This document shows positions 42,749 through 63,374 of a stretch of DNA of 64,000 bases, piece by piece; position 1 is the stretch's first letter, and each line of letters starts with the position of its first letter. Position numbers and translations under genes: made by a program. Source of the DNA: Candidatus Uhrbacteria bacterium (GTDB lineage Bacteria > Patescibacteriota > Patescibacteriia > UBA9934); NCBI GenBank assembly GCA_943354605.1, contig CALRCK010000002.1:6280-70279 (forward strand), written 5' to 3'. The notes below the pieces were generated by a model. It was not told the origin of the DNA and searched no databases. It saw nothing but the letters and a program-made list of their open reading frames with translations.

Positions 42749-42751
42749 AGG

Positions 42752-44484: not shown

Positions 44485-44487
44485 AGA

Positions 44488-45267
44488 TTACGCAGTGTGG
44501 AATCCCCACTTTCGGAAATACTTCCACGCACTCGTGAAAAACATTCGCTGCTTCTTCCACACGGAAACCTGAGCAAAACTCTTCCCCACAAAGTCACGAC
44601 ACACTGCTTCGGCGCAATATCGGATACGCAATCCGTTACCGCGAACGCGACGACAAAAATCAACTTCTTCAAACCAAATGAAGAACCGTTCGTCGAGCAT
44701 ACCGACGTACTGCAGAATCTCGCGCCGGAATGCAAAGTACGATCCGCGAATTTGCTCGACGTCTTGTGACGTCGCGTAATCAAAATCCGTCGCAAGATAT
44801 CGGTCGTTCACGTGCGGAAAAAGATGTGGGAGTTTCAACAGTACTGCGAGCTGGTCTCGCCATGTTGGATTCCGCCGAACGGATCGAACCACGTCGCCCT
44901 TGTCGTCAAGGAGCCTCACCCCAAGAACGCCAATATCGCGATATTCCATGAGTTGACGGTGGGTGAGCTCCAATGTTCCCGTCTCTACTCGCGTGTCGGG
45001 ATTCAAGAGAAGCACAACATCGCCCTTCGCCATCCGAATCGCTTGGTTACACGCCTTTGCAAAACCCGCATTGTAATCATTTTGCATCAAATGGACCCAA
45101 GGAAATTCATCACGAACCATGTGTGCAGAACCGTCTTTCGATCCATTGTCCACCACAAACACCTCAACCGAAAAATCCTCGCGCCGCAATACAAAAAGTT
45201 GCGCAAGATTCTGTTTGAGCAAATCACGAACGTTCCAGCTTACAATGACAACAGAAATTTTTGGCAC
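44488..45267 (-). CDS. Family 2 glycosyltransferase.
   Basis: It has ISVVIVSWN, DNGSKDGS and FEEVDFC. The start is chosen at an internal GTG (MPKISVV) to avoid a 32-nt overlap with rfbA. Confidence 0.75.
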   Translation of the reverse strand: MPKISVVIVSWNVRDLLKQNLAQLFVLRREDFSVEVFVVDNGSKDGSAHMVRDEFPWVHLMQNDYNAGFAKACNQAIRMAKGDVVLLLNPDTRVETGTLELTHRQLMEYRDIGVLGVRLLDDKGDVVRSVRRNPTWRDQLAVLLKLPHLFPHVNDRYLATDFDYATSQDVEQIRGSYFAFRREILQYVGMLDERFFIWFEEVDFCRRVRGNGLRIRYCAEAVCRDFVGKSFAQVSVWKKQRMFFTSAWKYFRKWGFHTA

Positions 45268-45271
45268 AACG

Positions 45272-46345: not shown

Positions 46346-46363
46346 ATACGTGCAGGTTATCAA

Positions 46364-47797: not shown

Positions 47798-47801
47798 AAA
47801 A

Positions 47802-48824
47802 TTACAACTTCCCGAGCCTATCTTTGTAATACATATCGTAATACTCCTGATACGCGCCGCTCTTACAGCGCATCCACCATTCTGGATTGTCGCGGTACCA
47901 GAGAATTGTTTCTTTAATGCCCTGTTCAAAAGGAATCTCCGCCTTCCAGCCGAGTTCACGTTCGATTTTCGCAGGATCGAGGAGGTAACGCTTGTCGTGC
48001 TGTAAACGATCAGGAACGTACGTCTTCAAACTCTGTGGCTTTCCTAACGTCTCAAGAACGAGATCCGCGATCTCTTCAACAGACTTCTCTACGCGTGTTC
48101 CAACGTTGTACGCCTCGCCGACCTTGCCTTTGTGAATAATCAGATCGATTGCGCGAGCATGATCGTCTACATGAATCCACTCGCGGCGATTCTGGCTCGT
48201 CTTGAATAATGGAAGCGACGTATCCTCGAGCGCATTCGTGGTAAATACCGGAATCACTTTTTCTGGAAATTGATACGGGCCGTAATTGTTCGCGCAATGA
48301 CTGATCGTGATTGGCATCTTGAATGTATGAAAATACGACATGACGACGTGATTCGCGGCCGCCTTCGATGCGTTGTACGGCGTCTTTGGTTGATATGCAT
48401 CGTCCTCTTGAAACATCCGATCCTCATCGAGCTCGAGCTCGCCGAACACCTCGCACGTTGAAATATGATGGAAGCGAGAAACATTCGCATTCTTTGCGGC
48501 TGCGAGAAAAATCTGCGTTCCCAAAACATTGGTACGAAGAAAAATTCCCGGATCGAGGATTCCACGATCGTTGTGCGACTCCGCAGCAAAATTCACAACA
48601 ACATCCACACCTTCAAGTGCAGCACGAGCCACGGCGTAGTCGCCAATATCGCCTTTCACGAATCGATATCGTGGATTCTTTTCCACGTCGCGAAGATTTT
48701 CCAAATTGCCAGCGTACGTTAACGCATCGTACGCAATCACCGAATCTTCCGGATGTGTCTTCAGCCAATACCGCACGAAATTCGACCCAATAAATCCTGC
48801 GCCTCCCGTGACGAGAATGTTCAT
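47802..48824 (-). CDS. rfbB: dTDP-glucose 4,6-dehydratase.
   Basis: It has MNILVTGGAGFIGSNFVRY, the catalytic YxxxK (YNASKAA) and the typical RmlB length. Confidence 0.9.
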   Translation of the reverse strand: MNILVTGGAGFIGSNFVRYWLKTHPEDSVIAYDALTYAGNLENLRDVEKNPRYRFVKGDIGDYAVARAALEGVDVVVNFAAESHNDRGILDPGIFLRTNVLGTQIFLAAAKNANVSRFHHISTCEVFGELELDEDRMFQEDDAYQPKTPYNASKAAANHVVMSYFHTFKMPITISHCANNYGPYQFPEKVIPVFTTNALEDTSLPLFKTSQNRREWIHVDDHARAIDLIIHKGKVGEAYNVGTRVEKSVEEIADLVLETLGKPQSLKTYVPDRLQHDKRYLLDPAKIERELGWKAEIPFEQGIKETILWYRDNPEWWMRCKSGAYQEYYDMYYKDRLGKL

Positions 48825-48877: not shown

Positions 48878-49291
48878 TTAGCCAACTTTCTGAAGCTCGG
48901 CCCGAATCGCCTCGGCGGTGGCGGCGAGTTCTTCCTTCGACGGATGCGTTTTGGTGAAGGTTCGGGGAATGCCATTGGTGCGGGGCATGATGTGCAAATG
49001 GGTGTGCATCACGTCTTGGCCGGCGCATTCGCCATGGTTCATACCAAGGTTGTACCCATCGGCTCCGACAGCCTTCAGAATCGATGGGGCGATCGTGTAA
49101 ATGGCCGACATCAATCTCTCGGCATCTGCCAGTGATCCTGTTTCGAGATTTTCTGCGTGAGCTTTTGGAAGGACGAGTGTATGACCAGTGCTCACCGGAC
49201 CGATGTCGAGAAATGCGATGACGAATTCGCTCTCGTAAATCTTGTGGCATGGAATTTCGCCGGCGATAATCGAACAAAAAATACAGGACAT
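48878..49291 (-). CDS. HIT-family (histidine triad) nucleotide hydrolase.
   Basis: It has HTHLHIM, the histidine triad. The N-terminus CIFC is HINT-like. Confidence 0.85.
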   Translation of the reverse strand: MSCIFCSIIAGEIPCHKIYESEFVIAFLDIGPVSTGHTLVLPKAHAENLETGSLADAERLMSAIYTIAPSILKAVGADGYNLGMNHGECAGQDVMHTHLHIMPRTNGIPRTFTKTHPSKEELAATAEAIRAELQKVG

Positions 49292-49453: not shown

Positions 49454-49822
49454 TCAATAAAATCGAACAAGACTCGCGTAGTCACCGTCACTCGTTACCA
49501 ATAGCGCTTTCTCGAATTTCTTTTCAAAAAATCCCCTCACAACCTGAAGAACGAGGTCTGCATCACAATTCCCTTTTGCCTTTCCAGAACTATCGTAGAC
49601 GACCTCCTTGAAAACAAGAATATATCCGTCTTCTTGCAGTCTTCGATAAAGATCAGAAAACTTTGCAATCAAACCAAGAAAAATATACGCGTCTTGAACA
49701 CCGTGTTTTTCTCGAAGCCAAATACGAAACCGACGATAATCCAAAACCCAACCCTGGGACTCGATACCTTTATGAAGATTTGCACCGTCGATATATGCGA
49801 CAACGTGACCATCTTTCTGCAT
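49454..49822 (-). CDS. NYN/LabA-like domain protein, short.
   Basis: The sequence VAYIDGANL...KGNCDADLVLQ...LLVTSDGDYASLV shows NYN/PIN-like acidic residues. It is shorter than typical LabA proteins. Confidence 0.45.
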   Translation of the reverse strand: MQKDGHVVAYIDGANLHKGIESQGWVLDYRRFRIWLREKHGVQDAYIFLGLIAKFSDLYRRLQEDGYILVFKEVVYDSSGKAKGNCDADLVLQVVRGFFEKKFEKALLVTSDGDYASLVRFY

Positions 49823-49830: not shown

Positions 49831-50163
49831 TTATGAACCCTTCAAAAGGATACAGGGCAGAATACCAACGGCGAGCGCAAAGAACAACCGCATGTCGCCA
49901 AAGAATGCGCCGAGATGCCAGACGATAAGCGCAAGGAGAATACCGACAATCGCTGGCCAAAAGAACGCCAACCGCGATTTCCTTTCTTCGCTCGTCGATC
50001 GTGATTCAACAGCAAGGTCGTACGCACCAAATCCAATAATCGCAATCCACAGCACATGCACGTTCATTGCGTTCGACACAAACCCAGGCCGAAGATACTC
50101 AGCAAAGAGAAAACTGAGATACACGACAAGAGAAACGGTGAGACCAAATCGAGAAATCGACAT
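49831..50163 (-). CDS. Hypothetical small membrane protein.
   Basis: It has three predicted TM helices. The start is chosen at MSISRF, adjacent to the upstream gene stop. Confidence 0.35.
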   Translation of the reverse strand: MSISRFGLTVSLVVYLSFLFAEYLRPGFVSNAMNVHVLWIAIIGFGAYDLAVESRSTSEERKSRLAFFWPAIVGILLALIVWHLGAFFGDMRLFFALAVGILPCILLKGS

Positions 50164-50164
50164 A

Positions 50165-51655
50165 TTAGAAGAGCCGATCATACACCGCACCGCGCCAACG
50201 ACGAAGTTCAAGTTTTATTGCCGCGAACAACGAAATGGGGTCTTTACGGAAGGTGATGGTGAAGCGATGCACATCAACCGATTGCGCGTCGGTGGCAAGA
50301 CCAGGAAGCGAAAGCGCAAATTTGTACGCACCGGTCTCTTTCGCGAGATCGGCGAGATGAAATGTTGTGTCCGCAACCCTCCAGCCATCCGCATTCATGG
50401 TCGACTTCGGAAGATTCGCATACACGTACCGAGTTGTTGGATCATCAAGATTCGTTTGCGTCGTTAACGGCCGAGGATCGGGATCGAAAAACGCCTGTGC
50501 CGAAGGTGCGAACTTCCCCTCCCCCGTCATTTTAATGTCGCCCGCATCAGTAAGCCCGGCCACCGTTCCATTGTCGGGAATCGTTGCTCTCGTCAGAACA
50601 TGGCTCTGCGGAATATCAACCGTCGACGCCCCGAGAGTAACGTGATGCGCGGAGTCGGCATGAAATGTTTCGAACGCAATCGATTTGCTGTTCGTGACAA
50701 ACGACGTTTTCCGATCAACGCTCAAATACCCAACGTCATCACCAACGTAGAGTCGATTCTTAAATGCCATATATCGCTGGCTCGTCGTAAACTGCCGCCA
50801 CACGATGTCCGACGTTCCCGAAAGCTCCACGCGATACACGCCTTCTGGCCAATTTTTTCCATCGAGCACCACATCGTGAGAAGAATATGTTTGATCCTCG
50901 GAAATATCCCCGTCATCAACGATTGCCTTCTCGAGCATCACCGTTCCGTTCTCGTCGTAGACCCGAACGTAGCCTTCGTCCGCGCCAAACGTGCGATTAA
51001 TATCTTGATATCGAAGCGCGAGGTGGAATGCCTCGTTCTTGATGTACGTCACATACTCATGGCTTCCTCGGAGCGAAATGGAAAATGTTTGTTCGTACCC
51101 AAGCGGCGTATACGACGACTCGCGATACGTCCCCGGCAACGTTGCGCGATACGTCACCACCGATGTTCGCGCCGGCTGATGTAATGCGAAGTCTTGAACT
51201 GCGGCCTTCACGTCGTCCTTTACAAAGACTATGAGTGTTGATTCGGAATCTGTGTTCGGCAGCACATTCCACCCAAGATTCTCCAGCCGCGTGTTCGATA
51301 GTGCGCGGAAATCGAATGCGTATGCCGCAAGATTCGTCATGCCACCAAGCTCCACCGCAAACGCATCATGAGGATCGAACTCCAGAGTAACCTCCGCACT
51401 CGTAAAGTCGTCTGACGGTGGGAAAACGGAAAAATATACAGGCTCATTTTCGATCGTAATGTATGTCCCGCGATCGGAATCATGCACTTCAGAAACACGC
51501 TCCGCAGGCAACGGCGCTTGCACAAACGGCGATAACGATCCCGGAGTCCACGATACCGTTCGCTCGCCGCTCGGCGACGCCGACAACCACGACAGCCAAA
51601 CAACGGGCACAACAGCCGCGATGACGATGAAGGATTTTACAAAAAGTTTTTTCAT
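50165..51655 (-). CDS. Large secreted or membrane-anchored hypothetical protein.
   Basis: The N-terminal signal anchor is MKKLFVKSFIVIAAVVPVVWLSW. The roughly 470-aa ectodomain has no recognised motif. It is co-oriented with the GT-C gene. Confidence 0.45.
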   Translation of the reverse strand: MKKLFVKSFIVIAAVVPVVWLSWLSASPSGERTVSWTPGSLSPFVQAPLPAERVSEVHDSDRGTYITIENEPVYFSVFPPSDDFTSAEVTLEFDPHDAFAVELGGMTNLAAYAFDFRALSNTRLENLGWNVLPNTDSESTLIVFVKDDVKAAVQDFALHQPARTSVVTYRATLPGTYRESSYTPLGYEQTFSISLRGSHEYVTYIKNEAFHLALRYQDINRTFGADEGYVRVYDENGTVMLEKAIVDDGDISEDQTYSSHDVVLDGKNWPEGVYRVELSGTSDIVWRQFTTSQRYMAFKNRLYVGDDVGYLSVDRKTSFVTNSKSIAFETFHADSAHHVTLGASTVDIPQSHVLTRATIPDNGTVAGLTDAGDIKMTGEGKFAPSAQAFFDPDPRPLTTQTNLDDPTTRYVYANLPKSTMNADGWRVADTTFHLADLAKETGAYKFALSLPGLATDAQSVDVHRFTITFRKDPISLFAAIKLELRRWRGAVYDRLF

Positions 51656-51665
51656 ATCATTTCTT

Positions 51666-51790
51666 TCCGTCATTCCCGCGACCTGTTCCCCAGAGGGGAA
51701 GGCGAGGATGGAGCGATCATCGCTCGCTGGTGGCTCGGATCCCTTCTTCTGCACTCCGCGCGAATCCCCTACGCTGCGACGATTCGCTTT
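51666..51790. repeat. Degenerate, expanded copy of the GTCATCCCCGCGAAGG.../GGATCCC... palindromic repeat family in a GC-rich intergenic spacer.
   Basis: The sequence gtcattcccgcgacc...ggcgaggatggagcgatc...ggatcccttcttctgc...cccctacgctgcg has piecewise similarity to the arms at 13409-13475 and 20927-20952. Confidence 0.3.
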
Positions 51791-51891: not shown

Positions 51892-53487
51892 TCATTTCAA
51901 GTTCGTTACCTCGATACGATACAACGTCTCATCTTGAATCGTTACAACGGACGTGATCGATAATCCCATGGCGCCAAGTTTTTCGTTGTTCAGATAGTCG
52001 AGATCAGATTGCGGGAACGTAATGCCAAAATAATACAGTGGAACGATCGGAGCGAGCGCCGGCACCGCAGCGTACGTTGCGTCCGATCGTAATGGAACAA
52101 TAACTCGACGGTACGGAAAAAGATATTTATCTGCGCGATCGACGATAACGACGGCGTTATATTCGGTATTCGCGATAACCACAGCGCGCTTCTCAATAGA
52201 TGTCACCGCCGCTGCACGAGCAGCAATAAGTCCGTCTGAACCCAGAAATACCGTTTGTACACTCAACGTTGCAACAATCACCACAAGCACGATCGTCCCG
52301 ACGGTGGATCGAAAACCGTGCATCATTTTCTCTCGAACACGAAGCAACGCCAGTCCAACCAAAACACTCGAGGCAAAAAAGAGTGGCAGCCAATATCGCA
52401 CATGTGAATTCCCAATGGTGACGGCTTTCGGATCCGGATTATCCGCAACAGACCAACTTCCGTACACCACTGCCATCCACAGCGCAGCAACACCAAGGCA
52501 CAGCACAAACGTTCGCCACGCTTTTCGATGCTCTTTCGCCGTCCATGCAAACCAAGCGCCGATGACAGCGAGTGTTGACGATACCGGATACAACCACCAA
52601 CCATAACGAAACGCATTCGCAAGAATCGTACGAAGATGAAATCCGAATGGAAGAAGCAAGTGTCCGATCGTTGTAAGCGGCGAGATCGACGCCGCAGCAT
52701 CCGCCGCCGATCGTGCGTCGGGCAATGTGTACCCCGTCGTGAGCGCCGATCCGTACAGCGCAGAATTCGCAAGAAGATACGTGCCGAAAACGATCGATCC
52801 ACCAATCGCCGCTGCACACACAATTTTCCATGGGAATGATTTTCGATACGCGATGAGAACGATTGCGATGACGATCATTGCGATCGGGGCCTCAACCAGC
52901 CGCATCGTCAAACCGATCGCGAAGATCAACCCCGCGATAAAGCCGATCGCACTCGATCGCCTCGAACATGCGGAAATAAAGACCGCAACGCCAATCGCGA
53001 GCAACGAAACACATGCAACGTTCGGCATCATGACTCGCGTGCCGTAGTACCAAAATGCCGGATGGATTAACGCGAAGAACGCCGAGCAATCCGCGAGAAG
53101 CTCATCGCCGCTCAACCTGCGAACCATCCACCACAACGCCGCAATGCCGAACGCGGCAGCAATTGGCGTAAAGAAATATTGAATGAATTCTCCAAGAACA
53201 TATCGAAGAGCCCCGGAGACAAACGGGAATCCCAAAAAGCTTGTTGGAAGGATTGCCGTGCCCGGGGCAATCATCGATCGTGGGTGAATGACGCCTTGCG
53301 CAATAGCATTCAGCGGTTCCGTTGTCATCATCGATCCCGTCTCTGCAAACGTTCGAGCAAAAAACGCGTTCGCACTCTCGTCTGGCGACGCAAAAACCCC
53401 CTGGGTTCCCACCGTCAGCCACGCCATCGTCACAACAACGATTCCAAGCACCGCAATGCGCAATGCCCATCGAAAACGGGTATTCAT
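51892..53487 (-). CDS. GT-C family polytopic membrane glycosyltransferase (ArnT/PMT-like).
   Basis: A 531-aa protein with about 12 TM helices. Its architecture is typical of polyprenyl-phosphate-sugar-dependent GT-C enzymes. The call is motif-level only. Confidence 0.45.
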   Translation of the reverse strand: MNTRFRWALRIAVLGIVVVTMAWLTVGTQGVFASPDESANAFFARTFAETGSMMTTEPLNAIAQGVIHPRSMIAPGTAILPTSFLGFPFVSGALRYVLGEFIQYFFTPIAAAFGIAALWWMVRRLSGDELLADCSAFFALIHPAFWYYGTRVMMPNVACVSLLAIGVAVFISACSRRSSAIGFIAGLIFAIGLTMRLVEAPIAMIVIAIVLIAYRKSFPWKIVCAAAIGGSIVFGTYLLANSALYGSALTTGYTLPDARSAADAAASISPLTTIGHLLLPFGFHLRTILANAFRYGWWLYPVSSTLAVIGAWFAWTAKEHRKAWRTFVLCLGVAALWMAVVYGSWSVADNPDPKAVTIGNSHVRYWLPLFFASSVLVGLALLRVREKMMHGFRSTVGTIVLVVIVATLSVQTVFLGSDGLIAARAAAVTSIEKRAVVIANTEYNAVVIVDRADKYLFPYRRVIVPLRSDATYAAVPALAPIVPLYYFGITFPQSDLDYLNNEKLGAMGLSITSVVTIQDETLYRIEVTNLK

Positions 53488-53490
53488 ACC

Positions 53491-54072
53491 CTACAATGAA
53501 TACGTGACCGCGGCGATAAGCGCAAATCCCAACGAAATTCCCAAAATCGCTTCACCGACAGTTATCAGTGCCGTTGACCCGGCAAATATTCCAAAAAGCA
53601 ATGCCGTCAGCGCAAAAAATTGCAACACCATTTTTACCTTTCCCCACACATTTGCTTTCATCATATCGCCGCCAGGATTCTTTCTTGACAGAAAGACGAG
53701 CGCCGGCAACAAGTCGAGCGCAATGGCGACGAACACAAGAACGGGATGGAAGTACTTCAACGCAACCGTCAATGCAACTCCCCCAACCAACATCTTGTCT
53801 GCAACGGGATCGAAAAAAATTCCCCACGGAGTAATTTGGTGGCGCAGTCGGGCAACAGAACCGTCGAGCATGTCGGTAAACGCAGCAAGCACAAACAGTG
53901 GAATGCCCAACGCGTAGTCCCCAAGAAACAAAATCCACACGACGAATGGCGTGAGTGCCATGCGGAACAAGGTGATGTGATTTGGGGTAATCCAGCGCGG
54001 AACCAACGGAACAAACGTGTACCGCATGACGTAGTCGTGCGGATAGAGTTTCGCAAAGCCTCTCTGTGCCAT
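53491..54072 (-). CDS. CDP-alcohol phosphatidyltransferase family protein.
   Basis: It has D-x2-D-G-x2-A-R...G...D-x3-D (DMLDGSVARLRHQITPWGIFFDPVADK) and 5-6 TM helices. Confidence 0.85.
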   Translation of the reverse strand: MAQRGFAKLYPHDYVMRYTFVPLVPRWITPNHITLFRMALTPFVVWILFLGDYALGIPLFVLAAFTDMLDGSVARLRHQITPWGIFFDPVADKMLVGGVALTVALKYFHPVLVFVAIALDLLPALVFLSRKNPGGDMMKANVWGKVKMVLQFFALTALLFGIFAGSTALITVGEAILGISLGFALIAAVTYSL

Positions 54073-54101
54073 AGATCAATTCGCGTGTACCATGAGGATA
54101 A

Positions 54102-56102
54102 TTGAATACAGTATACGCTATGGCTGTCATTTTCTTGAGTTTCGCCCTCATCCTTGGTCTTTTGACGATTCTTGGTCGCAGAATCGGCACAATGCTCTTC
54201 CCCGCCGAAACCCGCGAACTCTCAACCGCGATTGGAGCGCTCCTCGCCGTCGCATGCTTCTCCATTTCCGGCACCGCGGTGTATTACCTCACATCAGTGA
54301 ATACTTTCACACTCGGTACTACTGCAATCGCTACCATCGGCGGAATTCTCTTCGCGACACGATCGAGATCGATTTCAAAAACCGCCCAACGGGCCGTCTC
54401 TACAACACCAATCTCTCACACTCTTTCGCTCCTTTTCATCGCGATTATTTCTCTCGCAGCCTGGTGGCAAGCAATCCTCTCCACACCAATCACCGATGCC
54501 GTACGCTCACCCTGGCTCGTCCTTTCGCCAATCAGCATCATCGCCCCAGCAGTCGCGTTCGTCGCAAGCTTCGCAATGCTTCACCGTGGCGCCAAACTCC
54601 TCGGCTCCCTTGCGCTTTTCGCGACGCTTTTCTCCATCTTCGCGTCAGCAACCGTACTCTTCCCTCTCGGATATGGATTCGATCCATTCCTTCACCGGGC
54701 GACGATTGCGCACATCGCCGAGCACGGAACCATCACACCAAAACCGCTGTACTACATTGGTGAATACGCCATCGAACTCTTTGGGAATATTCTTGGCGGA
54801 ATTCCGATCGCGGTCATCGACGCGTTCCTCGTTCCCCTCATTGCAGCACTAACGCTCACCGTTACTGCGCGGCGTCTCCCAACGGGAATCGCTATTCTCC
54901 TCATCGCACTCAGCAACTTCACCACAACAACTCCACAATCGTTAGCATATCTTTTTACCATCCTCACCATCATCTCCGTCCCGAAATTCATCCAGCGATA
55001 TCGCGATCTTCTCGCGCCGCTGATCTTCGCAGCCGCCGCGCTCATCACTCACCCCATTGCCGGGGTTCCGGCATGTTTCTTTGTGGCATTCTGCGCAACG
55101 CGTCTGTGGGACGTGTCACTGATGAAGACGATTGCGCGATCGCTTCTCGCAATTGGCGCAGCGCTTGCGCTCCCAATAATGTTTGCCACACAAGCGATCA
55201 TCAGTCACGCGCCAATCTCATTCTCGTTCGACAATCTCTGGAAACTCAACGAACTCCCGCTCACCGGATTTCTGTTGTCCCACGGCAACACATGGCTTGA
55301 TGCGCTCTATCTCGTCGTCGGAAATCTTTCGACCATCATTCTCATTCTTGCAATCATCGGAATAATCCTTCTCCGAAAAGCCGGAACGCCATCACCGAAC
55401 GATAACGGAATACTCATGATTGCTCTTCTCATCTCCTTCGCGATCGTTTCGCTCGGAATCGACTTCTCGTATCTCATCGACTACGAACGTCAAGATTTTG
55501 CGCTTCGTCTTTTGCTCCTCGCAACACTCTTTGCCCTCCCGATCGCGGATGAGACGCTTCGAGTAATCATCGATCGCGCTGGTTGTTCTTCGCGGTCTCG
55601 ATCCGCCGTCGCATTCGTCGCGCTTTTCATGGTGAGCGCCGCAGCAGTCTACGGACTGTATCCACGCCACGATGGTTATGTACGCTCAGCGGCGTTCAAT
55701 GTGAGCCAAGCAGACTTTGACACGGTATACGCAATTCATCAGCGTGAAGCGGAAGATGCGGACTACATCGTGCTTTCGAATCAGGCAACCGCTGCAGCCG
55801 CGTTGCAAGAGTTTGGCTTTCGAAAGTATTATCACACCGACATCTTTTACTACCCTATTCCAACGGGAGGCACGCTCTATCAGTCGTATCTTTCCATGGT
55901 GGACACTGCGCCAACAAAAGAAACTGTTCTTGCAGCCATGAACCTTGCCGGAGTTTCGAAGGCATATTTCGTCGTCAGTGACTACTGGTGGAAAAGCGAT
56001 GCGATTATTGAAAACGCAAAACAGCAAACCGACGACTGGTTTGCTGTTGATGGCGGGAAAACAACGGTGTGTATTTTTACGAACGAAGCGAACGCGCGAT
56101 AG
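54102..56102 (+). CDS. Large polytopic membrane protein, possibly a GT-C-like glycosyltransferase or polymerase, with a C-terminal soluble domain.
   Basis: A 666-aa protein with about 14 TM helices and a roughly 190-aa C-terminal extracytoplasmic-like domain. No definitive motif was found. Confidence 0.4.
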   Translation: MNTVYAMAVIFLSFALILGLLTILGRRIGTMLFPAETRELSTAIGALLAVACFSISGTAVYYLTSVNTFTLGTTAIATIGGILFATRSRSISKTAQRAVSTTPISHTLSLLFIAIISLAAWWQAILSTPITDAVRSPWLVLSPISIIAPAVAFVASFAMLHRGAKLLGSLALFATLFSIFASATVLFPLGYGFDPFLHRATIAHIAEHGTITPKPLYYIGEYAIELFGNILGGIPIAVIDAFLVPLIAALTLTVTARRLPTGIAILLIALSNFTTTTPQSLAYLFTILTIISVPKFIQRYRDLLAPLIFAAAALITHPIAGVPACFFVAFCATRLWDVSLMKTIARSLLAIGAALALPIMFATQAIISHAPISFSFDNLWKLNELPLTGFLLSHGNTWLDALYLVVGNLSTIILILAIIGIILLRKAGTPSPNDNGILMIALLISFAIVSLGIDFSYLIDYERQDFALRLLLLATLFALPIADETLRVIIDRAGCSSRSRSAVAFVALFMVSAAAVYGLYPRHDGYVRSAAFNVSQADFDTVYAIHQREAEDADYIVLSNQATAAAALQEFGFRKYYHTDIFYYPIPTGGTLYQSYLSMVDTAPTKETVLAAMNLAGVSKAYFVVSDYWWKSDAIIENAKQQTDDWFAVDGGKTTVCIFTNEANAR

Positions 56103-57291
56103 CTTCTGTAAAGAATTCAATAAGGCGTTCCGCGTACTTCGTAAGAACGTATGGCGCAACACTTTCGCGCATTGCCTCACCACGAGTAGCGTATACATCT
56201 TTCTCGGCATCCATAATTCGGATTGCGCGCAAAAAATCTGTCTCGTCCCCCGGCGTGAACAACAATCCCGTTTTGCCATCCTGAATCAATTCACCAACGC
56301 CACCAATTCGTGAAGCGATCAATGGAATGCCTGCCGACAATGCTTCGTAAATCACCGTTGGAGAATTCTCGTAGCACAAGCTTGGAACCACGACGGCATC
56401 CACCGCTGCGATGCACTTCATCACCTCCTCCTGCGGCGTGTATCCCAAATACACAATACGTTTGTCGTGCTGCGCGCGCTCTTCAACCATCGACCGCAAC
56501 GGACCGCCGCCAACGATCTGCAACTGCGCATCACCCTCGTATTTTGAAAATGCATCCAAAAGAAATCCAAGACCCTTGTGATATCCGAGCTGCCCAATAA
56601 ACAATAATCGCAACGGACCAGAACGATGTGGATCACGAAGGACATCCGATGGCTTTGGCGATGGGTTTGGAACAAAGCGAACGTCGGTATCCTTAAAATA
56701 TCCAACCTTCTTATACTCATCGATGAGGAATTGCGACGGAGAAAGCACGAGCGATGGCTTGCCCAACCGCGCACGGCAAATTGCACGGTACACGATGTAT
56801 CCAGGCTTGGCGTACCACGGCTCTTTTTCCTGGCCGAACATACGAAGACCCGAAGGAATAACCAACTGCAAGTCGTGCATGATGTGCACATGCGGAATGT
56901 TCATCGCTTGAATAGCGCCGGGAATGCGCAAGCCAATGCCCTTCAAATTATGTGTAACCACAACATCGGGTTTTTCGTCGGCAAGAATTTGAGACACCGC
57001 AGAGCGACCGCTAAACGAAAATGCATCGATGATGTGCCACAATAAACGCACCGGCCACGAGTGTTTGTAATCGTCGAGCGTGAAATACACGTTTTGGGGA
57101 AAGAATCGATACACGCGTTCAACACTCAACCTCCCCAGCGAAATTCCGACGCCCTTATCCTTTGGTTGCCCAGTGATAATAAAAATATCATGTCCCATGG
57201 CCAACAACTGCTCAACAGTACGAACGATGACGTTTTCCGCACCACCACGCGTGTGTGGCGGATAGAGATTCGTGATGATTCCAATTTTCAT
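56077..57291 (-). CDS. Family 4 glycosyltransferase (GT-B, group 1).
   Basis: The N-terminus is MKIGIITNLYPPHTRGGAE. The C-terminal domain has an E-x7-E-type motif (VVPSLCYENSPTVIYEALSAGIP). Confidence 0.8.
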   Translation of the reverse strand: MKIGIITNLYPPHTRGGAENVIVRTVEQLLAMGHDIFIITGQPKDKGVGISLGRLSVERVYRFFPQNVYFTLDDYKHSWPVRLLWHIIDAFSFSGRSAVSQILADEKPDVVVTHNLKGIGLRIPGAIQAMNIPHVHIMHDLQLVIPSGLRMFGQEKEPWYAKPGYIVYRAICRARLGKPSLVLSPSQFLIDEYKKVGYFKDTDVRFVPNPSPKPSDVLRDPHRSGPLRLLFIGQLGYHKGLGFLLDAFSKYEGDAQLQIVGGGPLRSMVEERAQHDKRIVYLGYTPQEEVMKCIAAVDAVVVPSLCYENSPTVIYEALSAGIPLIASRIGGVGELIQDGKTGLLFTPGDETDFLRAIRIMDAEKDVYATRGEAMRESVAPYVLTKYAERLIEFFTEAIARSLRS

Positions 57292-57303
57292 AAGCAACGA
57301 TCG

Positions 57304-58419
57304 TTACAAGTTGTTGTACACCTGGAGCAAACGCCTCGCAAGGATTCGTTCATCGTACAGTGCACAAGCCCGAACCCTTGCCCGTTCTCCGCAATGCTTC
57401 GCAAAGTTTTCATCGCCACAGAATCGATTCAACGCCGCCGTCAACGACGCAACGTCGTTTGGAACCACAAGACTTCCCGTTTCATTTGGAACAATCAACG
57501 ATCGCACACCCGGCAAATCCGAGACGATGCTTGGAACGCCGCTCGCCATTGCCTCGAGCGTCACAAGACCAAATGCCTCAGAACGATCGATAGACGGGAG
57601 AACGTGGATATTCGCGGCCTGATATGCAAGCGGCAAATCTTCAAAAGGAATCGATCCCGCGAAGTGGACCCGATCACTCACTCCAAGATCGGCTGCGAGT
57701 GATTCGAATGTTTTTCGATTATTTCCATCGCCAACAATCAAGAGCTGCCACGGTGTCGTCATCGCAGCGCACGCAGAAAGCAACACATCGACACCTTTAA
57801 AATAATGCGCACGATCGAGTCCGCCAACGAACAGAATCGTTGGAACATTCTCGCAAAGACCAAATATGTTACGAGCCGTCGCGCGGTCACCCGGAACAAA
57901 TCTCTCTGTATCAATCCCGAATGGCAACGCTTCGATATTTCGATGCCGCACATGATGTTCTTGAGCGTATTCCTTCGAGCTCACGACAAGCACTTTCGCC
58001 GTCTGAAAAATGAATCGTTCAAGCGCCAATCGATACGCGCGAAACGTCAGTCCAAGAATGCCCGACGCCTTTGGCCGCATATGGTACGTCACGACAAGCG
58101 GAATGTTCCAAAGCTTTGCCGCAAATGCTACGAGAATATCGCTCCCAAAAAATGGATAGTGCAAATGCACCACGTCGTATCCTCGGAGCTTCTTCACGAG
58201 ATCAAGTAATACCGCGCCATTCCCCCATGCATAAAACGGTTGAAGGCGGGTGGTTCCCGTCTCAATGCCTGTAGGAATCTTGTGCGTTGGTGTAAAAACA
58301 TCGACCGTTTGGCCGAGCGCGCGAAGGCATCGCGCGTCATGAGCGGCAGCTGTCCCAATACCACCGCGGTATGGCGGATAGACCGGAGTGACGATTGCGA
58401 TCCGACGAAAAGTACTCAC
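57304..58419 (-). CDS. Family 4 glycosyltransferase (GT-B, group 1).
   Basis: It has RRIAIVTPVYPPYRGGIGT and a C-terminal SIDRSEAFGLVTLEAMASGVP. The start is chosen at GTG (MSTFRRIAIV). Confidence 0.8.
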   Translation of the reverse strand: MSTFRRIAIVTPVYPPYRGGIGTAAAHDARCLRALGQTVDVFTPTHKIPTGIETGTTRLQPFYAWGNGAVLLDLVKKLRGYDVVHLHYPFFGSDILVAFAAKLWNIPLVVTYHMRPKASGILGLTFRAYRLALERFIFQTAKVLVVSSKEYAQEHHVRHRNIEALPFGIDTERFVPGDRATARNIFGLCENVPTILFVGGLDRAHYFKGVDVLLSACAAMTTPWQLLIVGDGNNRKTFESLAADLGVSDRVHFAGSIPFEDLPLAYQAANIHVLPSIDRSEAFGLVTLEAMASGVPSIVSDLPGVRSLIVPNETGSLVVPNDVASLTAALNRFCGDENFAKHCGERARVRACALYDERILARRLLQVYNNL

Positions 58420-58420
58420 A

Positions 58421-58759
58421 TTATGAACGGTGGTGATGCTTTGGATGATCGATAGCAATCGAACGGACGAGCTCGGTAATTTCCTCGCTCATTTTTTGCT
58501 GGCGTACCATGATACGCAATACCGCATACAGCAAAAACGTCACAGCAAGATACACGAGCAAATCCGCACCACGACCGATTCCAGCAAGAGCAGCAATGCG
58601 ATCCGTTGCCTGGGGCATGAGCGCAACGCCGATCACCGTCGTCCAAAGCACTGACCACACGACAACCCAATACCTTGAAACCTGTTTTCGTGAATACTGC
58701 TTTACCGAACGAAGAATCGCATACAATGAGAACGCAACAAGGAAAAGTTGAAACATCAT
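58421..58759 (-). CDS. DUF2304-like small membrane protein, the usual partner of GtrB/DPM1-like GT2 genes.
   Basis: A 112-aa protein with three TM helices, immediately downstream of the polyprenyl-phosphate glycosyltransferase. Confidence 0.4.
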   Translation of the reverse strand: MMFQLFLVAFSLYAILRSVKQYSRKQVSRYWVVVWSVLWTTVIGVALMPQATDRIAALAGIGRGADLLVYLAVTFLLYAVLRIMVRQQKMSEEITELVRSIAIDHPKHHHRS

Positions 58760-58761
58760 AA

Positions 58762-59442
58762 TTATCCAACAATTTTTTTCTTCAGAATATCTTTTGCCGT
58801 GAGTAGTGCCTTCAGCGTTGACTGACCTTTTTGCAGCGTTTCCACGGAATAGGAAATGCGAACCGGTCGTTCAGTGTATCGTAAACGCTTCGCCTGAATG
58901 AGGTCGAGAATTTCTGATGCATGCGCCATTCGATCAATCGAGATCCGCATCACCCCGGCAGCATGACGAGAGAGCGCACGAAACCCGTTGTGTGTATCAG
59001 TGACCCGAATCCCAGAAAGCGCAACAGTGAACAGCGTCCCAAGACGAATGAGAATCTTTCGTATGATTGGCATGTCCTTCGCGGAAACCCCAAGGAATCG
59101 AGACCCAAGAACAACGTCCGCTTCACCACCAACAATCGGTTTCACCATCATGGGAATTTCGTCTCCGCGCATCTGACCGTCGGCATCAAAATGTACAAGA
59201 ATATCCGCACCAAGCTCCTGAAGCGCAAAATCTGTTCCCGTTTGAATTGCCGCACCCTGTCCACGATTCAGAATATGACGAAGCACGGTAATGCAATCTC
59301 GAGAAGGAATATCCACGGTGTCGTCGGTTGATCCGTCGTCCACCATCACGACGTGGTCAACGAAGCGCACAGCATCGAGAATCGCAGATTCTGTGAGTGC
59401 TTTTCCCTTGTTATACGCTGGAATAATCGCAACAACACGCAT
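58762..59442 (-). CDS. Polyprenyl-phosphate glycosyltransferase (GT2, GtrB/ArnC/DPM1-like).
   Basis: It has VAIIPAYN, DDGSTDDT and DADGQ (a DxD-type motif). At 226 aa it is a typical soluble DPM1-like size. Confidence 0.8.
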   Translation of the reverse strand: MRVVAIIPAYNKGKALTESAILDAVRFVDHVVMVDDGSTDDTVDIPSRDCITVLRHILNRGQGAAIQTGTDFALQELGADILVHFDADGQMRGDEIPMMVKPIVGGEADVVLGSRFLGVSAKDMPIIRKILIRLGTLFTVALSGIRVTDTHNGFRALSRHAAGVMRISIDRMAHASEILDLIQAKRLRYTERPVRISYSVETLQKGQSTLKALLTAKDILKKKIVG

Positions 59443-59462
59443 ATATCTTCCAGTGTGGCGAT

Positions 59463-60473
59463 CTACGTACCATTGGTCAAGAGGAGCTTGTTTGCGCGAA
59501 CGTAGTCAATAGTTTTCGCGAATCCGTCCTCCAAACGCACTAACGGAATCCAATTCAGCTGATTTCGAGCCTTCGTAAGATCTGGTAGGCCCATTTGCGT
59601 CAGAAATGGCTGTGCAGGTTCGTATACAATCTCCGACGTGCTTTCCGCGAGTTTGATGATATTCGCCGCAACGTCGCGCATCGGCAACTCAACATCACTC
59701 CCAATATTCACCGGACCAACACTTGGTTCTGCGCGCATCAGACGAATCAACGCATCGACAACGTCGGAAACATAAATCAACGCCGTTGTCGTGGATTCAT
59801 CACCAGAGATGGCGAGCGGTTTGTTGTCGAGCGCCGCAAGAACGAAGTCTGGAATTTGGTGCCCCTGAAACAGCGGCATGCGCGGCCCGAACGTTCGGAA
59901 AATTCGCGCAATCTTTGCATCGAGGTGATGAACGCTTGCGTAGGTGGTGACCATCGTTTCCGCAAAACGCTTCCCCTCGTTGTACGGAGCGCGTGGCGTG
60001 AGGTGATTCACAACGCCAAGATGCTCTTCATTAAAAAGCTTCACGTCAGGAGTTCGATTCCCGTAAATCACCGCACTCGACGCAAGCAAAAACTTCGCCT
60101 TGTATTTCACGGCAATATCGAGCATGTTTCGCGTTCCGATGCTATTTGCGAGAAGCGTTGGAATACGAAACTCCTCAAATCCTTTCGAAATTGTTGGCAT
60201 CGCAAGGTGGTACACCTCGTGTACGCCAATAAATTTCACTTTGAACGGTTCAAGCTCGGCAAACGACGCAAGGTCGAACGCGTCGTTCACGTCAATGCGC
60301 AAAAACTGAAAATCAGGATTCCGCAAAAGTCCTTCAATGTTTCGCACGTGACCCGTCGAAAAGTTATCAATACAGATCACGCGATTCCCTTCTCGCAATA
60401 ACGCTTCACACAAAAACGACCCAATGAATCCCGCCCCTCCCGTGACCACTGACGTTTTTTGTTCTAATGACAT
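59463..60473 (-). CDS. NAD-dependent SDR epimerase/dehydratase, UDP-glucuronate decarboxylase (UXS)-like.
   Basis: It has VVTGGAGFIGSFLCEAL, a catalytic YxxxK (YNEGKRF) and a UXS/ArnA-decarboxylase-like length and motifs. The start is chosen at MSLEQKT. Confidence 0.7.
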   Translation of the reverse strand: MSLEQKTSVVTGGAGFIGSFLCEALLREGNRVICIDNFSTGHVRNIEGLLRNPDFQFLRIDVNDAFDLASFAELEPFKVKFIGVHEVYHLAMPTISKGFEEFRIPTLLANSIGTRNMLDIAVKYKAKFLLASSAVIYGNRTPDVKLFNEEHLGVVNHLTPRAPYNEGKRFAETMVTTYASVHHLDAKIARIFRTFGPRMPLFQGHQIPDFVLAALDNKPLAISGDESTTTALIYVSDVVDALIRLMRAEPSVGPVNIGSDVELPMRDVAANIIKLAESTSEIVYEPAQPFLTQMGLPDLTKARNQLNWIPLVRLEDGFAKTIDYVRANKLLLTNGT

Positions 60474-60514
60474 ATTTTGTAGAGACGGCCCGCTGAGCCG
60501 TTGTGATGAAACAT

Positions 60515-62602
60515 TTACCACCCAGCAAAAAATGCGCCGGTGGTAGAGCCAAAGGTTGGCGCATGCCACGATCCAAGAACGGTTTTTCCGTCAGACACCG
60601 TCAGTGTGACTAAACCAGCATCCACGTTTTCCATCGTCATCATATCATCCCAGCCATCAAGATCGAGATCCGTACCAACCGTCGCTGTTCCGGAAGACGC
60701 CTGATCCTGAAGAACAAACACTCCAACGAGTGAGCCGATGGTCCGAACAACATTCACTGTGTTCCCCGAAGACAAGTTGCTCACGAAAATGTCGTCAATA
60801 AGATCCCCGTCGCGGTCGCCAGCCGAAACGCTCACCGCGGTCGCGCTTGGGAATGGAACAAAGTCCACGAGATATTTCCCATCGTTGTCGTACACCGCAA
60901 CATGGATCGCACCATCAATAACGCCGCTGACCACAACTTCGTCCGCAGAGTCTTGATCAATGTCTGCAGTAGAGACGGAGAGCGCCGAACTTGATGGGAA
61001 CACCGACGCTGGGAAACGGAAAATTTCTTCCCCGCTCTCGCTCCATGCAACAACGTCTTGGCTAACGCCCTCGCCAACCGCGGTAACAATATCGTCCTCG
61101 CCGTCGCCGTTGATATCACCAACAGCAACAGAAACGCCGTGGCTCGACGCGTTGTCGTATGCAAAAAACTCGTGGTCGACCGCACCGAAGGCTTTAAACA
61201 CTCGAACGTGCGGGCCACCGGATTCACCAGCACCGGTCACAATTTCCGGAATGCCATCGTGATCATTATTGATGGTTGCCACACGAACGCCACCGTGAAA
61301 GTTGCTCGAATACGCCATAAACCTTGCGTATTCCGATCCATCCGCCCGCCGAACATCAACTGCTGGCGCAACACCAGACGGTGCACCAAAAACGGCAAAC
61401 GAATATCTGAGAACATCCTCAGATCCTGTCGCAACGTCGGACTTCGTCGATTCCGAATCTGTGGCGGACGATGCTGACGCAGCGGGAATGGATGTCTCAA
61501 CATCCACTGCCGGAGCGTATGAAGACGCCATCGAAAGCGCCCGGTCAATATTCAATCGACCCGCCCCAAGCTGACCAGACGTAAAACCAGTGATCGTGAC
61601 TGGATCCACCGAAAGCTTCAGAATATTTCTCACGTCCGCTGCAGAAAGACTAGGAAATCGGGAAAAAAGAAGCGCCGCAGCACCAGCAACAAGCGGTGAT
61701 GCCATAGACGTTCCGCTCCATCCGCCCTGATAAAGGTCTGGATACCCGGCACGAGTGTTTTGATACGCCAATCCATACACATCGGTCCCCGGCGCAGCAA
61801 CGTCGGCACAAATCGTTCCAAAATTCGTAAAAGGAGCCCCATGGTCCGTTTCGTCAATGGCCGTTACGCCAATCACCCAATCGTCGTCTGTTGTTCGTAG
61901 GCATGCGGGATACACCGGATTCGCATTCGTATCGCGGGCATCGTTTCCCATTGCTGCAACAACCACAACGCCATGTGCGTATGCATCTTTGACCGCATTT
62001 TGCAGTGCCGTGTGTGCCTCGTTCCCCGCAAAACTCAAATTAATGACTTTCGCACCATTCCGTACCGCGTATCGAATAGCATTCGCAGCATCGTATTCTG
62101 TTCCGCTGCCCTGATCATCGAGCATGCGCACCGGCATAATTTTTACCGACCAATTGACGCCAGAAATACCAACATGATTATCGCCAACCGCACCAATTTC
62201 CCCGGCAATAAGTGTTCCGTGCAAAATCGCTTCTTCCGACGAATCGTTCTTCGGGCTTGGTGAAGGATCGTTGTCGCCACCAATAAAATCCCAGCCATGC
62301 ACGTCGTCCACAAAGCCATTCGCGTCGTCGTCTTCCCCATTCCCCGGAATTTCTTTTGTGTTCACCCAAAGGTTATCTACGATATCCTCATGCGTGAGAT
62401 CGAGGCCCGTATCGAGCACTGCAACAGTTACCGAGGACGAACCCGTGGTAACGTCCCACGCCGCTGGAGCATGGATTGCGTCCAAATACCACTGCTGTTC
62501 AGCGTATCGAGGATCGTTAGGCGTTTGGGCAAGAACAAGCGATGGGATAAGCGCGGCGGAGGCTGCAGCAGCAATCACACGCGAAAAAAAGCGATATCGC
62601 AT
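60515..62602 (-). CDS. Secreted S8 subtilisin-like serine peptidase with C-terminal FG-GAP/VCBS-like repeats.
   Basis: It has a signal peptide and the catalytic Asp (VAVLDTGL), His (HGTLIAG) and Ser (GTSMASPLVAGAAAL). C-terminal repeats contain DxDGDG motifs. Confidence 0.85.
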   Translation of the reverse strand: MRYRFFSRVIAAAASAALIPSLVLAQTPNDPRYAEQQWYLDAIHAPAAWDVTTGSSSVTVAVLDTGLDLTHEDIVDNLWVNTKEIPGNGEDDDANGFVDDVHGWDFIGGDNDPSPSPKNDSSEEAILHGTLIAGEIGAVGDNHVGISGVNWSVKIMPVRMLDDQGSGTEYDAANAIRYAVRNGAKVINLSFAGNEAHTALQNAVKDAYAHGVVVVAAMGNDARDTNANPVYPACLRTTDDDWVIGVTAIDETDHGAPFTNFGTICADVAAPGTDVYGLAYQNTRAGYPDLYQGGWSGTSMASPLVAGAAALLFSRFPSLSAADVRNILKLSVDPVTITGFTSGQLGAGRLNIDRALSMASSYAPAVDVETSIPAASASSATDSESTKSDVATGSEDVLRYSFAVFGAPSGVAPAVDVRRADGSEYARFMAYSSNFHGGVRVATINNDHDGIPEIVTGAGESGGPHVRVFKAFGAVDHEFFAYDNASSHGVSVAVGDINGDGEDDIVTAVGEGVSQDVVAWSESGEEIFRFPASVFPSSSALSVSTADIDQDSADEVVVSGVIDGAIHVAVYDNDGKYLVDFVPFPSATAVSVSAGDRDGDLIDDIFVSNLSSGNTVNVVRTIGSLVGVFVLQDQASSGTATVGTDLDLDGWDDMMTMENVDAGLVTLTVSDGKTVLGSWHAPTFGSTTGAFFAGW

Positions 62603-62795: not shown

Positions 62796-63374
62796 ATGCG
62801 GAATATTATTTTCGGAACTGGCGAGTTTTATCATATTTACAATCGCGGTGTGGACAAGCGAACAACTTTTCTCGAAAGCCAACACTACAAACATTTCATG
62901 TTTCTCGCCGGAAGAAGCAAACACGAAATAGGGACAGGAAAACACCTTGTAAATCTGCATGCCTACGCCCTGATGCCAAATCACTTTCATTTTCTCCTTG
63001 AGCAAATGTGCGACGATGGCATAGCGCAGTTTATGCAACGTCTGAGCACTAGCTATACTCGGTGGTTCAATCATCAAAACAACCGAACAGGCAGCCTCTT
63101 TGAAACAACCTACAAAGCCAAACATATCGATACAAACGCCTACCTCGCGGTCGTTGCCGCCTATATTCATCGAAACCCGCTCGATATCATCGGAACCGAT
63201 TCAGTAGAAAATCTTGATACGTACGAATGGTCAAGCTATCCGCACTATCGAGGAATTGTAAAAAATCCCATAGTAGACGATGCGATGCTTTTCGATTTCT
63301 TTGGTGGGAAGGATTGTATTCAAAACTTTCACCAAAAATCCTTTACTCTTGGCATTGATGGCTTCGCGGAATAA
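62796..63374 (+). CDS. HUH-family Y1 tyrosine transposase (REP-associated tyrosine transposase / IS200-like TnpA).
   Basis: It has the HUH motif (NHFHFLL) and a catalytic Tyr region (TSYTRWFNHQNNRTGSLFETTYKAKHI). The roughly 190-aa size fits the family. Confidence 0.7.
   Translation: MRNIIFGTGEFYHIYNRGVDKRTTFLESQHYKHFMFLAGRSKHEIGTGKHLVNLHAYALMPNHFHFLLEQMCDDGIAQFMQRLSTSYTRWFNHQNNRTGSLFETTYKAKHIDTNAYLAVVAAYIHRNPLDIIGTDSVENLDTYEWSSYPHYRGIVKNPIVDDAMLFDFFGGKDCIQNFHQKSFTLGIDGFAE

Follow-up and report, generated by a model that had tools for sequence, protein, structure and literature searches.

A 64,000-nt stretch of DNA from Candidatus Uhrbacteria bacterium (GCA_943354605.1, contig CALRCK010000002.1, positions 6,280–70,279 of the forward strand; hereafter the window) contains ten closely packed genes, A–J, whose products probably charge a lipid carrier with a sugar inside the cell and then attach the sugar outside via enzymes of the glycosyltransferase C (GT-C) fold. 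They comprise a membrane-anchored ectoprotein (A), two polytopic proteins of predicted GT-C fold (B and D), a CDP-alcohol phosphatidyltransferase (C), two family 4 glycosyltransferases (GT4; E and F), a DUF2304 protein (G), a short family 2 glycosyltransferase (GT2; H), an extended SDR (short-chain dehydrogenase/reductase; I) and a secreted S8 subtilase (J). The Gtr, Arn, Gac, PpgS and CsbB/YfhO systems already display the general logic. New here are the way the genes are combined, which Patescibacteria conserve, a PgsA-like gene held in place between the two GT-C genes, an apparent GT-C family (D) and an ectoprotein family (A) that no existing model covers, and a UXS-derived SDR lineage that lacks the decarboxylase residues, often lacks the catalytic Tyr, and is yet the most conserved member of the cluster. 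A full-text literature search returned no paper on this cluster.

Conservation of the gene block in Patescibacteria

We surveyed relatives of D with one genome per species. A D relative was present in 438 genomes, and the best 80 loci were used; neighbours were counted by tblastn of the window proteins in the 59 loci with enough left flank and the 51 with enough right flank. To the left of D, a HIT-family gene was found in 50 of the 59 loci, A in 57, B in 58 and C in 58. To the right, the counts out of 51 were 42 for E, 42 for F, 37 for G, 41 for H, 41 for I, 40 for J and 28 for a TPR gene. Gene order and strands were kept down to ~30–40% identity of D, and the gene tables of five relatives show one order around D proteins of 82%, 59% and ~40% identity: rhamnose genes, HIT, a small membrane protein, A, B, C, D (on the plus strand), GT4, GT4, DUF2304, GT2, SDR, S8, TPR and a protein of ~1300–1400 amino acids (aa). 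By record label, the best 80 loci are all Uhrbacteria, Patescibacteria, Parcubacteria or generic, and the relatives of B, D and I all come from Patescibacteria, mostly labelled Candidatus Uhrbacteria.

The grouping of these genes is beyond chance. Its invariant core is (HIT)-A-B-C-D, and the GT4-GT4-DUF2304-GT2-SDR-S8 half is a frequent, separable neighbour; the HIT gene and J travel with the cluster. A sequence-only reading, made from the letters of the window and their translated open reading frames (ORFs), had placed an envelope glycosylation cluster at 51892–62602. The ORFs it named all exist, Pfam and NCBIfam recover every family it named, including the two GT4 enzymes, the CDP-alcohol phosphatidyltransferase and the S8 subtilase, and comparative genomics bears out the clustering, with A, B and C beside D in 57–58 of 59 loci and E–J in 37–42 of 51. 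The conserved block is wider than 51892–62602, reaching left to the HIT gene at 48878 and right to the TPR gene. Such strong conservation points to a core envelope structure in bacteria that are abundant, mostly uncultured and probably attached to other cells, and whose surface glycoconjugates are almost unstudied.

Several variations accompany this common order. At the site of the small membrane protein, a small gene of 111–130 aa is called in three relatives (locus records L001, L003 and L005), and tblastn detects it in only some loci. In many relatives, one more GT2 gene, of ~359 aa, separates the second GT4 from the DUF2304 gene (14445–15524, minus strand, in L005), and in these the F-to-G distance is ~1.8–2 kb, as against 0.8 kb in the window. 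Because the extra GT2 is missing in the window lineage, the glycan may differ between lineages. Dozens of third-party metagenome-assembled genome records with the cluster (L014, L015, L017, L021, L025 and others) are titled ‘uncultured Gammaproteobacteria bacterium’, which looks like a generic or wrong label.

A GT2/DUF2304 pair of the GacI/GacJ type

H matches the NCBIfam model of PpgS, the polyprenyl-phosphate N-acetylgalactosamine synthase of mycobacteria, with 171 bits (E = 2.5e-50) over model positions 3–217 of 226, and the next model is AglJ at 60 bits. As the curated equivalog cutoff of PpgS is 370 bits, H is a relative and not an equivalog, and N-acetylgalactosamine should not be assumed as its sugar. 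The nearest proteins of solved structure are the Pyrococcus dolichol-phosphate-mannose synthase (46 bits) and ArnC (23 bits). The ‘FDADGQ’ of H aligns with the DAD of dolichol-phosphate-mannose synthase (DxD motif), and the protein contains no hydrophobic segment in its 226 aa.

G adjoins H, and the two are also adjacent in relatives. GacJ, a DUF2304 protein, binds GacI and raises its N-acetylglucosamine (GlcNAc)-phosphate-undecaprenol synthase activity, and Rv3632 stimulates PpgS (10.1101/180810). That H and G form a polyprenyl-phosphate glycosyltransferase pair of the GacI/GacJ and PpgS/Rv3632 type is well founded by homology. Known members of this pair type use N-acetylhexosamine (HexNAc) donors, and the analogy makes a HexNAc or hexose the most probable sugar and speaks against a pentose. 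The Gtr/Arn-like logic proposed by the sequence-only reading, with a GT2, its DUF2304 partner and a GT-C enzyme, is upheld in general.

The system closest to H is PpgS (Rv3631)/Rv3632/Rv3779 of Mycobacterium tuberculosis, which places galactosamine on arabinogalactan: PpgS is the nearest relative of H over its full length, the DUF2304 partner is shared, and transfer is by a GT-C enzyme. The systems differ in that H falls below the equivalog cutoff and its host is a Patescibacteria bacterium.

Two polytopic proteins of predicted GT-C fold

Relatives of B (94) and D (101) were aligned, and both structures were predicted, with pLDDT values of 94.6 for B and 92.9 for D. In fold comparisons, the top 21 matches of the B model are all of GT-C fold, with ArnT best and STT3B second, and the top 16 matches of the D model are all GT-C enzymes, again with ArnT best. 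The models thus assign a GT-C fold to both polytopic proteins, as the sequence-only reading had expected. The DE motif that it had also expected holds for B, in which S34-P35-D36-E37 is invariant in the 94 sequences; it stands straight after helix 3–20, at the start of helix 35–50, in the first outside loop.

B and D were identified through fold comparison only. B misses the gathering score of Pfam PMT_2 (24 bits vs 26.1), and a precomputed PF13231 match is recorded for ~15 of 120 listed B homologues. D matches no Pfam or NCBIfam family, and none of its 120 listed homologues has a Pfam family on record. With B, D and A, neither single-sequence nor family-profile searches against solved structures gave anything useful. 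From its model, D appears to represent a GT-C family for which no family model exists. Profile–profile comparison of B and D with hhalign found no relation (probability 0.4%), so the two are not recent duplicates.

In D, a conserved outside loop follows the sixth helix (GYGFDPFLHRAT...TITPKPLYY); this loop includes two short helices and D194, which is nearly invariant. At its C terminus, D has an outside domain with an invariant Y628-W629-W630 in ‘DYWW’ (residues 627–630, window ~55980–55991), which recalls the WWDYG motif of oligosaccharyltransferase but differs from it.

A has one transmembrane (TM) segment and no Pfam or NCBIfam match. A profile of 50 A orthologues finds nothing in PDB or Pfam, and Pfam run on all 50 orthologues gives scattered weak Ig-like matches only. 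Judged by these searches, A is a putative new ectoprotein family that no existing model covers.

The folds bear on one view of the acceptor, in which B or D, the latter through an STT3/AglB-like C-terminal domain, would O-glycosylate secreted proteins and the S8 protease would process the same targets. A protein of 1361 aa follows the TPR gene in L086 (12473–14300, minus strand), a locus record of the same strain that extends past the right end of the window, and very large proteins (1294–1409 aa) stand there in all relatives inspected, among them at the right-hand ends of L001, L003 and L005. These proteins have no Pfam domain. In this strain Ser, Thr and Asp abound in the C-terminal 609 aa of the protein, which could be of a surface or S-layer type and a target of glycosylation. 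Besides this Pfam-less neighbour, Ser/Thr-rich in this strain, protein glycosylation would fit STT3B as the second-best structural match of B, PMT_2 as its sole Pfam match, and the co-conservation of the S8 protease (40 of 51 loci). It fits less well with a PMT_2 match below the gathering score and with D, which has only the invariant Tyr-Trp-Trp and no WWDYG. Since the similarity to ArnT, PMT and oligosaccharyltransferase is about equal, the fold does not single out an acceptor class, and we consider protein O-glycosylation distinctly unlikely.

A UXS-derived SDR lineage without the decarboxylase residues

The sequence-only reading took protein I for a UXS-like UDP-glucuronate decarboxylase that feeds a pentosylation pathway: the SDR would make a UDP-pentose of the xylose or 4-aminoarabinose (Ara4N) type, H and G would load the pentose, and a GT-C enzyme would transfer it outside. 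In overall sequence, I is indeed nearest to UXS1. It scores 213 bits, at 41% identity, with human UXS1 (hUXS1), vs at most 103 bits with other SDRs of solved structure, epimerases and dehydratases among them; the NAD-binding motif is intact in the family; the window protein keeps Ser, Tyr and Lys; and ‘UDP-glucuronate decarboxylase’ is the name of relatives in some public sources (JGI; NCBI has ‘GDP-mannose 4,6-dehydratase’).

The residues of decarboxylation speak against this assignment. We counted them, in hUXS1 numbering, in 109 close relatives of 61–93% identity (Table 1). Glu120 and Arg277 occur in 0 of 109, and a third Arg, constant in canonical UXS, is Thr in 96 of 109. Ser119-Glu120 and Arg277 are invariant, distinguishing features of UXS, and in hUXS1 the Y147F variant is inactive and R277Q makes only traces of UDP-xylose (PMC3438964). 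The catalytic Tyr itself is lost in 38 of the 109 (35%), and the full Ser/Thr-Tyr-Lys triad is present in 52. An alignment artefact was considered for the loss of Tyr and rejected, as there is no ambiguity in the ‘PRA..NEGKRF’ flank and many cluster representatives share the Leu and Phe variants. All 109 relatives keep the NAD-binding GGAGFIGS and the Asp of ‘IDNF’. Some relatives read ‘SSATVYG’ at the Thr118–Glu120 stretch, which we take to be a GalE-type motif.

Table 1. Residues of protein I at hUXS1 active-site positions
hUXS1 residue	Window protein	109 close relatives
Thr118	Ser	Ser 65, Ala 31, Thr 13
Ser119	Ala	Ala 60, Ser 29, Gly 20
Glu120	Val	Glu 0, Val 72, Thr 34, Ala 3
Tyr147	Tyr	Tyr 71, Leu 19, Phe 15, Val 3, Cys 1
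Arg277	Gly	Arg 0, Gly 83, others (incl. Ala/Val/Ser) 26

A clean division appeared in a wider search, an exhaustive HMMER run over 1.84 billion representatives of which the best 150 were aligned. Canonical proteins with both Glu120 and Arg277 made up 106 of these, 34 had neither and 10 were mixed. Of the 34, which are the insertion-bearing set, 25 share a 14-aa insertion that follows the third strand, and 6 are fragments truncated at the N terminus. Protein I thus shares with the UXS family, its best overall relatives, the Rossmann GGAGFIGS and most of the fold, and departs from it in the insertion, in Ala-Val for Ser119-Glu120, in Gly for Arg277 and in a conserved C-terminal tail, ‘RANKLLLTNG’. 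The ArnA model scores 37 bits with the SDR. No UDP-glucose dehydrogenase was found among the ORFs of at least 160 aa scanned in the 64-kb window, and H is nearest to a HexNAc-type synthase.

Because Glu120 and Arg277 are absent and are invariant in UXS, a canonical UXS is excluded. The SDR belongs to a discrete UXS offshoot that cannot be expected to decarboxylate UDP-glucuronate. With the decarboxylase residues missing, and no dehydrogenase found among the scanned window ORFs, we hold the pentosylation pathway to be very improbable. The residues also suggest that the name ‘UDP-glucuronate decarboxylase’ is wrong for this lineage, and metabolic reconstructions are probably mistaken where they derive UDP-xylose from it.

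Even so, the SDR is the cluster's best-conserved protein. In L005, for example, it is 67% identical, vs 39% for B and D and 56% for H. Its top conservation, insertion and tail therefore imply that it is strongly selected, for a role different from UXS chemistry. This leaves two readings: the Tyr-bearing members may be 4-epimerase-like or redox enzymes with a new specificity, or the SDR may be a non-catalytic NAD-binding partner. There is precedent for an SDR epimerase acting on an undecaprenyl-phosphate-linked sugar (PMC11127046).

A PgsA-like enzyme and two GT4 enzymes

C scores 98.9 bits with PF01066 (gathering score 22 bits), and the signature D-x2-DG-x2-AR-x8-G-x3-D-x3-D is intact, read in ‘FTDMLDGSVARLRHQITPWGIFFDPVADK’. 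Its best family is NCBIfam pgsA (TIGR00560), whose cutoff it misses (79.7 vs 109.1 bits), and its relatives of solved structure are led by Staphylococcus aureus PgsA at 45.6 bits, vs 22 bits for phosphatidylinositol (PI)-phosphate synthase. In 58 of 59 loci the C gene is flanked by the two GT-C genes. As a source of CDP-alcohol, the cytidylyltransferase at 12164–12652 was considered and rejected, being a relative of nicotinamide mononucleotide adenylyltransferase.

The nearest solved relatives of F are SPS (111 bits), MshA (85), PimA (69, a full-length alignment) and PimB' (62); with NCBIfam MshA it scores 128.5 bits, below the cutoff. The model of GlcNAc-phosphatidylglycerol (PG) synthase is matched weakly by F (72.6 bits) and E (40.3 bits). 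The scores of E, F and C lie far below family cutoffs and so show enzyme class only. Glycosylation of PG by a GT4 enzyme is documented (PMC12713373).

A lipoglycan or glycolipid would use every enzyme type of the block: C would make a PG-type anchor, E and F would glycosylate it inside, and after flipping B and D would extend or decorate it outside with the H/G product; in a variant, the ArnT-like B would glycosylate the phospholipid head group directly. The model for this is the phosphatidylinositol mannoside/lipomannan pathway of mycobacteria (PgsA1, PimA, PimB', Ppm1 and the PimE/Mpt GT-C enzymes), which likewise has a CDP-alcohol phosphatidyltransferase, two GT4 enzymes, a polyprenyl-phosphate GT2 with a membrane helper, and GT-C enzymes. 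The fixed place of C between the GT-C genes and its close coupling to B, the PimA and PimB' matches of F, the weak GlcNAc-PG synthase matches, ArnT (a lipid-modifying GT-C enzyme) as the best structural match of B, and GpsA and CTP synthase genes in the window all agree with such a lipid. On the other hand, the GT4 matches are far below cutoffs and GT4 similarity says little about the acceptor, C resembles PgsA and not PI-phosphate synthase and may serve housekeeping, no acyltransferase or inositol genes were seen, and the literature search gave no report of such lipids in these bacteria. On balance we regard a lipoglycan as possible but unlikely.

The neighbouring rhamnose genes

A dTDP-rhamnose locus lies to the left of the block at 41.6–48.8 kb, with RmlA-long (383 bits vs a curated cutoff of 320), RmlB, an RmlD-RmlC fusion and four GT2 genes. 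The sequence-only reading had recognized this locus, at 41642–48824, and set the glycosylation cluster apart from it. The locus stands; its separateness is doubtful, since rhamnose genes adjoin the block in each of the five relatives examined and at the majority of loci. The fusion is a single ORF (46364–47959, minus strand) carrying RmlD (RmlD_sub_bind, 219 bits) and RmlC (dTDP_sugar_isom, 178 bits). It is also fused in L001 (477 aa), and the two are separate genes in L003 and L005.

This neighbourhood suggests side-chain decoration of a rhamnose-containing wall polysaccharide, with the Rml enzymes and the four GT2 enzymes building a rhamnan, H and G making polyprenyl-phosphate-HexNAc, and a GacL-like GT-C enzyme adding the side chain. 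The parallel is GacI/GacJ/GacL, the documented route to the GlcNAc side chain of the group A carbohydrate of Streptococcus pyogenes, in which a short GT2 and an adjacent three-TM DUF2304 protein are likewise followed by GT-C transfer outside, and whose genes also stand beside dTDP-rhamnose/rhamnan genes. In addition, an LCP ligase gene is present in the window at 5252–6550, and another lies directly beside D in L046. The Uhrbacteria block differs from Gac in having two unrelated GT-C enzymes with a CDP-alcohol phosphatidyltransferase between them, the UXS-derived SDR, the S8 protease and protein A, and no GacH-type glycerol-phosphate transferase or GacK-type flippase was seen here. Decoration of a rhamnan leaves C, the second GT-C enzyme and A unexplained, and the surroundings of the rhamnose genes showed neither an ABC/Wzx exporter nor an initiating enzyme of the WecA/GacO type. 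We doubt this reading to about the same degree as the lipoglycan.

Proposed pathway

From the established folds, motifs, family relationships, gene order and conservation we infer a donor sugar, a flippase, an acceptor and a GT-C enzyme for the H/G product as follows. On the inner side of the membrane, G would hold and stimulate H, which would move one sugar from a nucleotide sugar to polyprenyl phosphate. E and F would act in the cytoplasm on a lipid-linked primer or glycolipid, and C would supply a phosphatidylglycerol-type lipid. The lipid-linked sugar would then be flipped, for which the small membrane protein at 49831–50211 is the sole candidate in the cluster, and outside the cell B, D or both would transfer it to an acceptor, which may be a glycolipid or lipoglycan, the neighbouring rhamnose-containing wall polymer, or a surface protein. 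The SDR would not decarboxylate UDP-glucuronate in this scheme; it would be an enzyme with 4-epimerase-like or redox activity, or else bind NAD as a non-catalytic partner.

The scheme shares with ArnC/ArnT, which act with ArnA in the modification of lipid A with aminoarabinose, the polyprenyl-phosphate GT2 and the ArnT-like GT-C enzyme. It is unlike Arn in that the SDR has neither the Glu nor the Arg, hence no ArnA-type decarboxylase chemistry, in that H has no counterpart of the C-terminal TM helices of ArnC, and in that no ArnA, ArnB aminotransferase, ArnD deformylase or ArnE/F was found in the block or among the window ORFs scanned.

Several points weigh against this scheme. No right-hand genes stand beside D in 9 of 51 loci, which keep A-B-C-D, so B and D may not depend on H and G, and the halves are perhaps separate systems that are often adjacent; in L046, an LCP ligase gene, an HtrA gene and others occupy the right side of D. 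In D, the loop after the first helix has 5 residues and no conserved acid, and the candidate catalytic loop, G192-F193-D194-P195 ... K214, follows the sixth helix. C could be a housekeeping PgsA placed in an envelope super-operon, as the whole 64-kb window is an envelope region (dcw genes, LCP, GpsA). The block has no recognizable flippase family. Finally, the enzyme activities, the donor and the acceptor are all putative.

A fuller version of lipid-carrier loading and GT-C transfer joins these elements: a PG-type phospholipid made by C would be glycosylated or extended outside by the two GT-C enzymes; D and A would each found a new family; and the SDR would be repurposed, either serving the GT2/DUF2304 synthase as a regulatory or scaffolding subunit that binds NAD, or acting on a new substrate. 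This would be a so far undescribed route to an envelope glycoconjugate in Patescibacteria of the Uhrbacteria type. We put it forward tentatively, as possible rather than probable. The GT2/DUF2304 synthase, the two GT-C enzymes (one without an existing family model) and the SDR lineage are concrete targets, the first of them assayable.

Gene organization and surroundings

The genes of the conserved block are listed in Table 2. A–J are all on the minus strand except D, a plus-strand gene flanked by E and C. A gap of 3 nt parts the stop of C from the start of B; between the stop of H and the start of G the gap is again 3 nt. D is transcribed divergently from C and is convergent with E, their 3' ends overlapping by 26 nt. 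The identical public protein D, which led to L086, has its start recorded at 54120, and A probably starts at 51655, giving 496 aa. Exact-sequence look-ups of the I and J products matched no record.

Table 2. Genes of the conserved block, in window coordinates
Feature	Coordinates	Strand	Supporting evidence
HIT-family (HinT-like) nucleotide hydrolase	48878..49291	−	Pfam HIT 81.9 bits; NCBIfam HinT 90.9 bits, below cutoff
Small membrane protein, ~110–126 aa, 3–4 hydrophobic segments	49831..50211	−	ORF; no Pfam/NCBIfam family
Protein A, anchored ectoprotein	50165..51754	−	One N-terminal TM segment, ~460-aa outside domain
Protein B, 531 aa, polytopic, predicted GT-C, ArnT/PMT type	51892..53487	−	PMT_2 24 bits, gathering score 26.1
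Protein C, 193 aa, CDP-alcohol phosphatidyltransferase, PgsA nearest	53491..54072	−	CDP-OH_P_transf 98.9 bits
Protein D, 666 aa, polytopic, predicted GT-C fold, C-terminal outside alpha/beta domain	54102..56102	+	No Pfam family
Protein E, cytoplasmic GT4	56077..57297	−	Glyco_trans_1_4 101 bits, Glyco_transf_4 59 bits; no TM segment
Protein F, cytoplasmic GT4, MshA/PimA/BshA type	57304..58458	−	Glycos_transf_1 131.5 bits
Protein G, 112 aa, DUF2304, 3 TM segments	58421..58759	−	DUF2304 84.3 bits, gathering score 25.5
Protein H, 226 aa, short soluble GT2	58762..59442	−	Glycos_transf_2 65.9 bits; no TM segment
Protein I, 336 aa, extended SDR, UXS-derived	59463..60473	−	Pfam Epimerase 131 bits
Protein J, 695 aa, secreted S8 subtilase, C-terminal FG-GAP repeats	60515..62602	−	Peptidase_S8 172 bits, FG-GAP_3 41.8 bits; N-terminal hydrophobic segment
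TPR protein, 235 aa in L086	63454..63960 within window	−	TPR/HAT matches; right border of conserved block

A hairpin of 11 pairs followed by a T-run lies on the minus strand at 56048–56020, just past the stop of E and inside the end of D, and may terminate a J-to-E transcript. A promoter and terminator scan gave counts not clearly above those of shuffled sequence, and Rfam and tRNA scans of 48–64 kb found no RNA genes.

Two further genes interrupt the block. An IS200-like Y1 transposase gene (Y1_Tnp, 41 bits) at 62796–63374, on the plus strand, lies between the S8 and TPR genes; it is missing at that site in L001, L003, L005 and L006 and present in L086 (the same strain), and looks like a recent insertion within the conserved block. 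A gene for an NYN-domain (LabA-like) protein (49454–49822, minus strand) stands between the HIT and small membrane protein genes, and, because none is called there in relatives, it is a second lineage-specific insertion.

Elsewhere, the window encodes further envelope functions: MurG, FtsW, MraY, Mur ligases, CTP synthase, GpsA, the LCP protein and CtpA. Two ORFs, of 431 aa (13559–14854, plus strand) and 419 aa (13592–14851, minus strand), face each other on opposite strands, neither with a Pfam match, and at most one of them is likely to be a gene. The G+C content across 13559–14854 is the maximum of the window, at 0.56–0.57.

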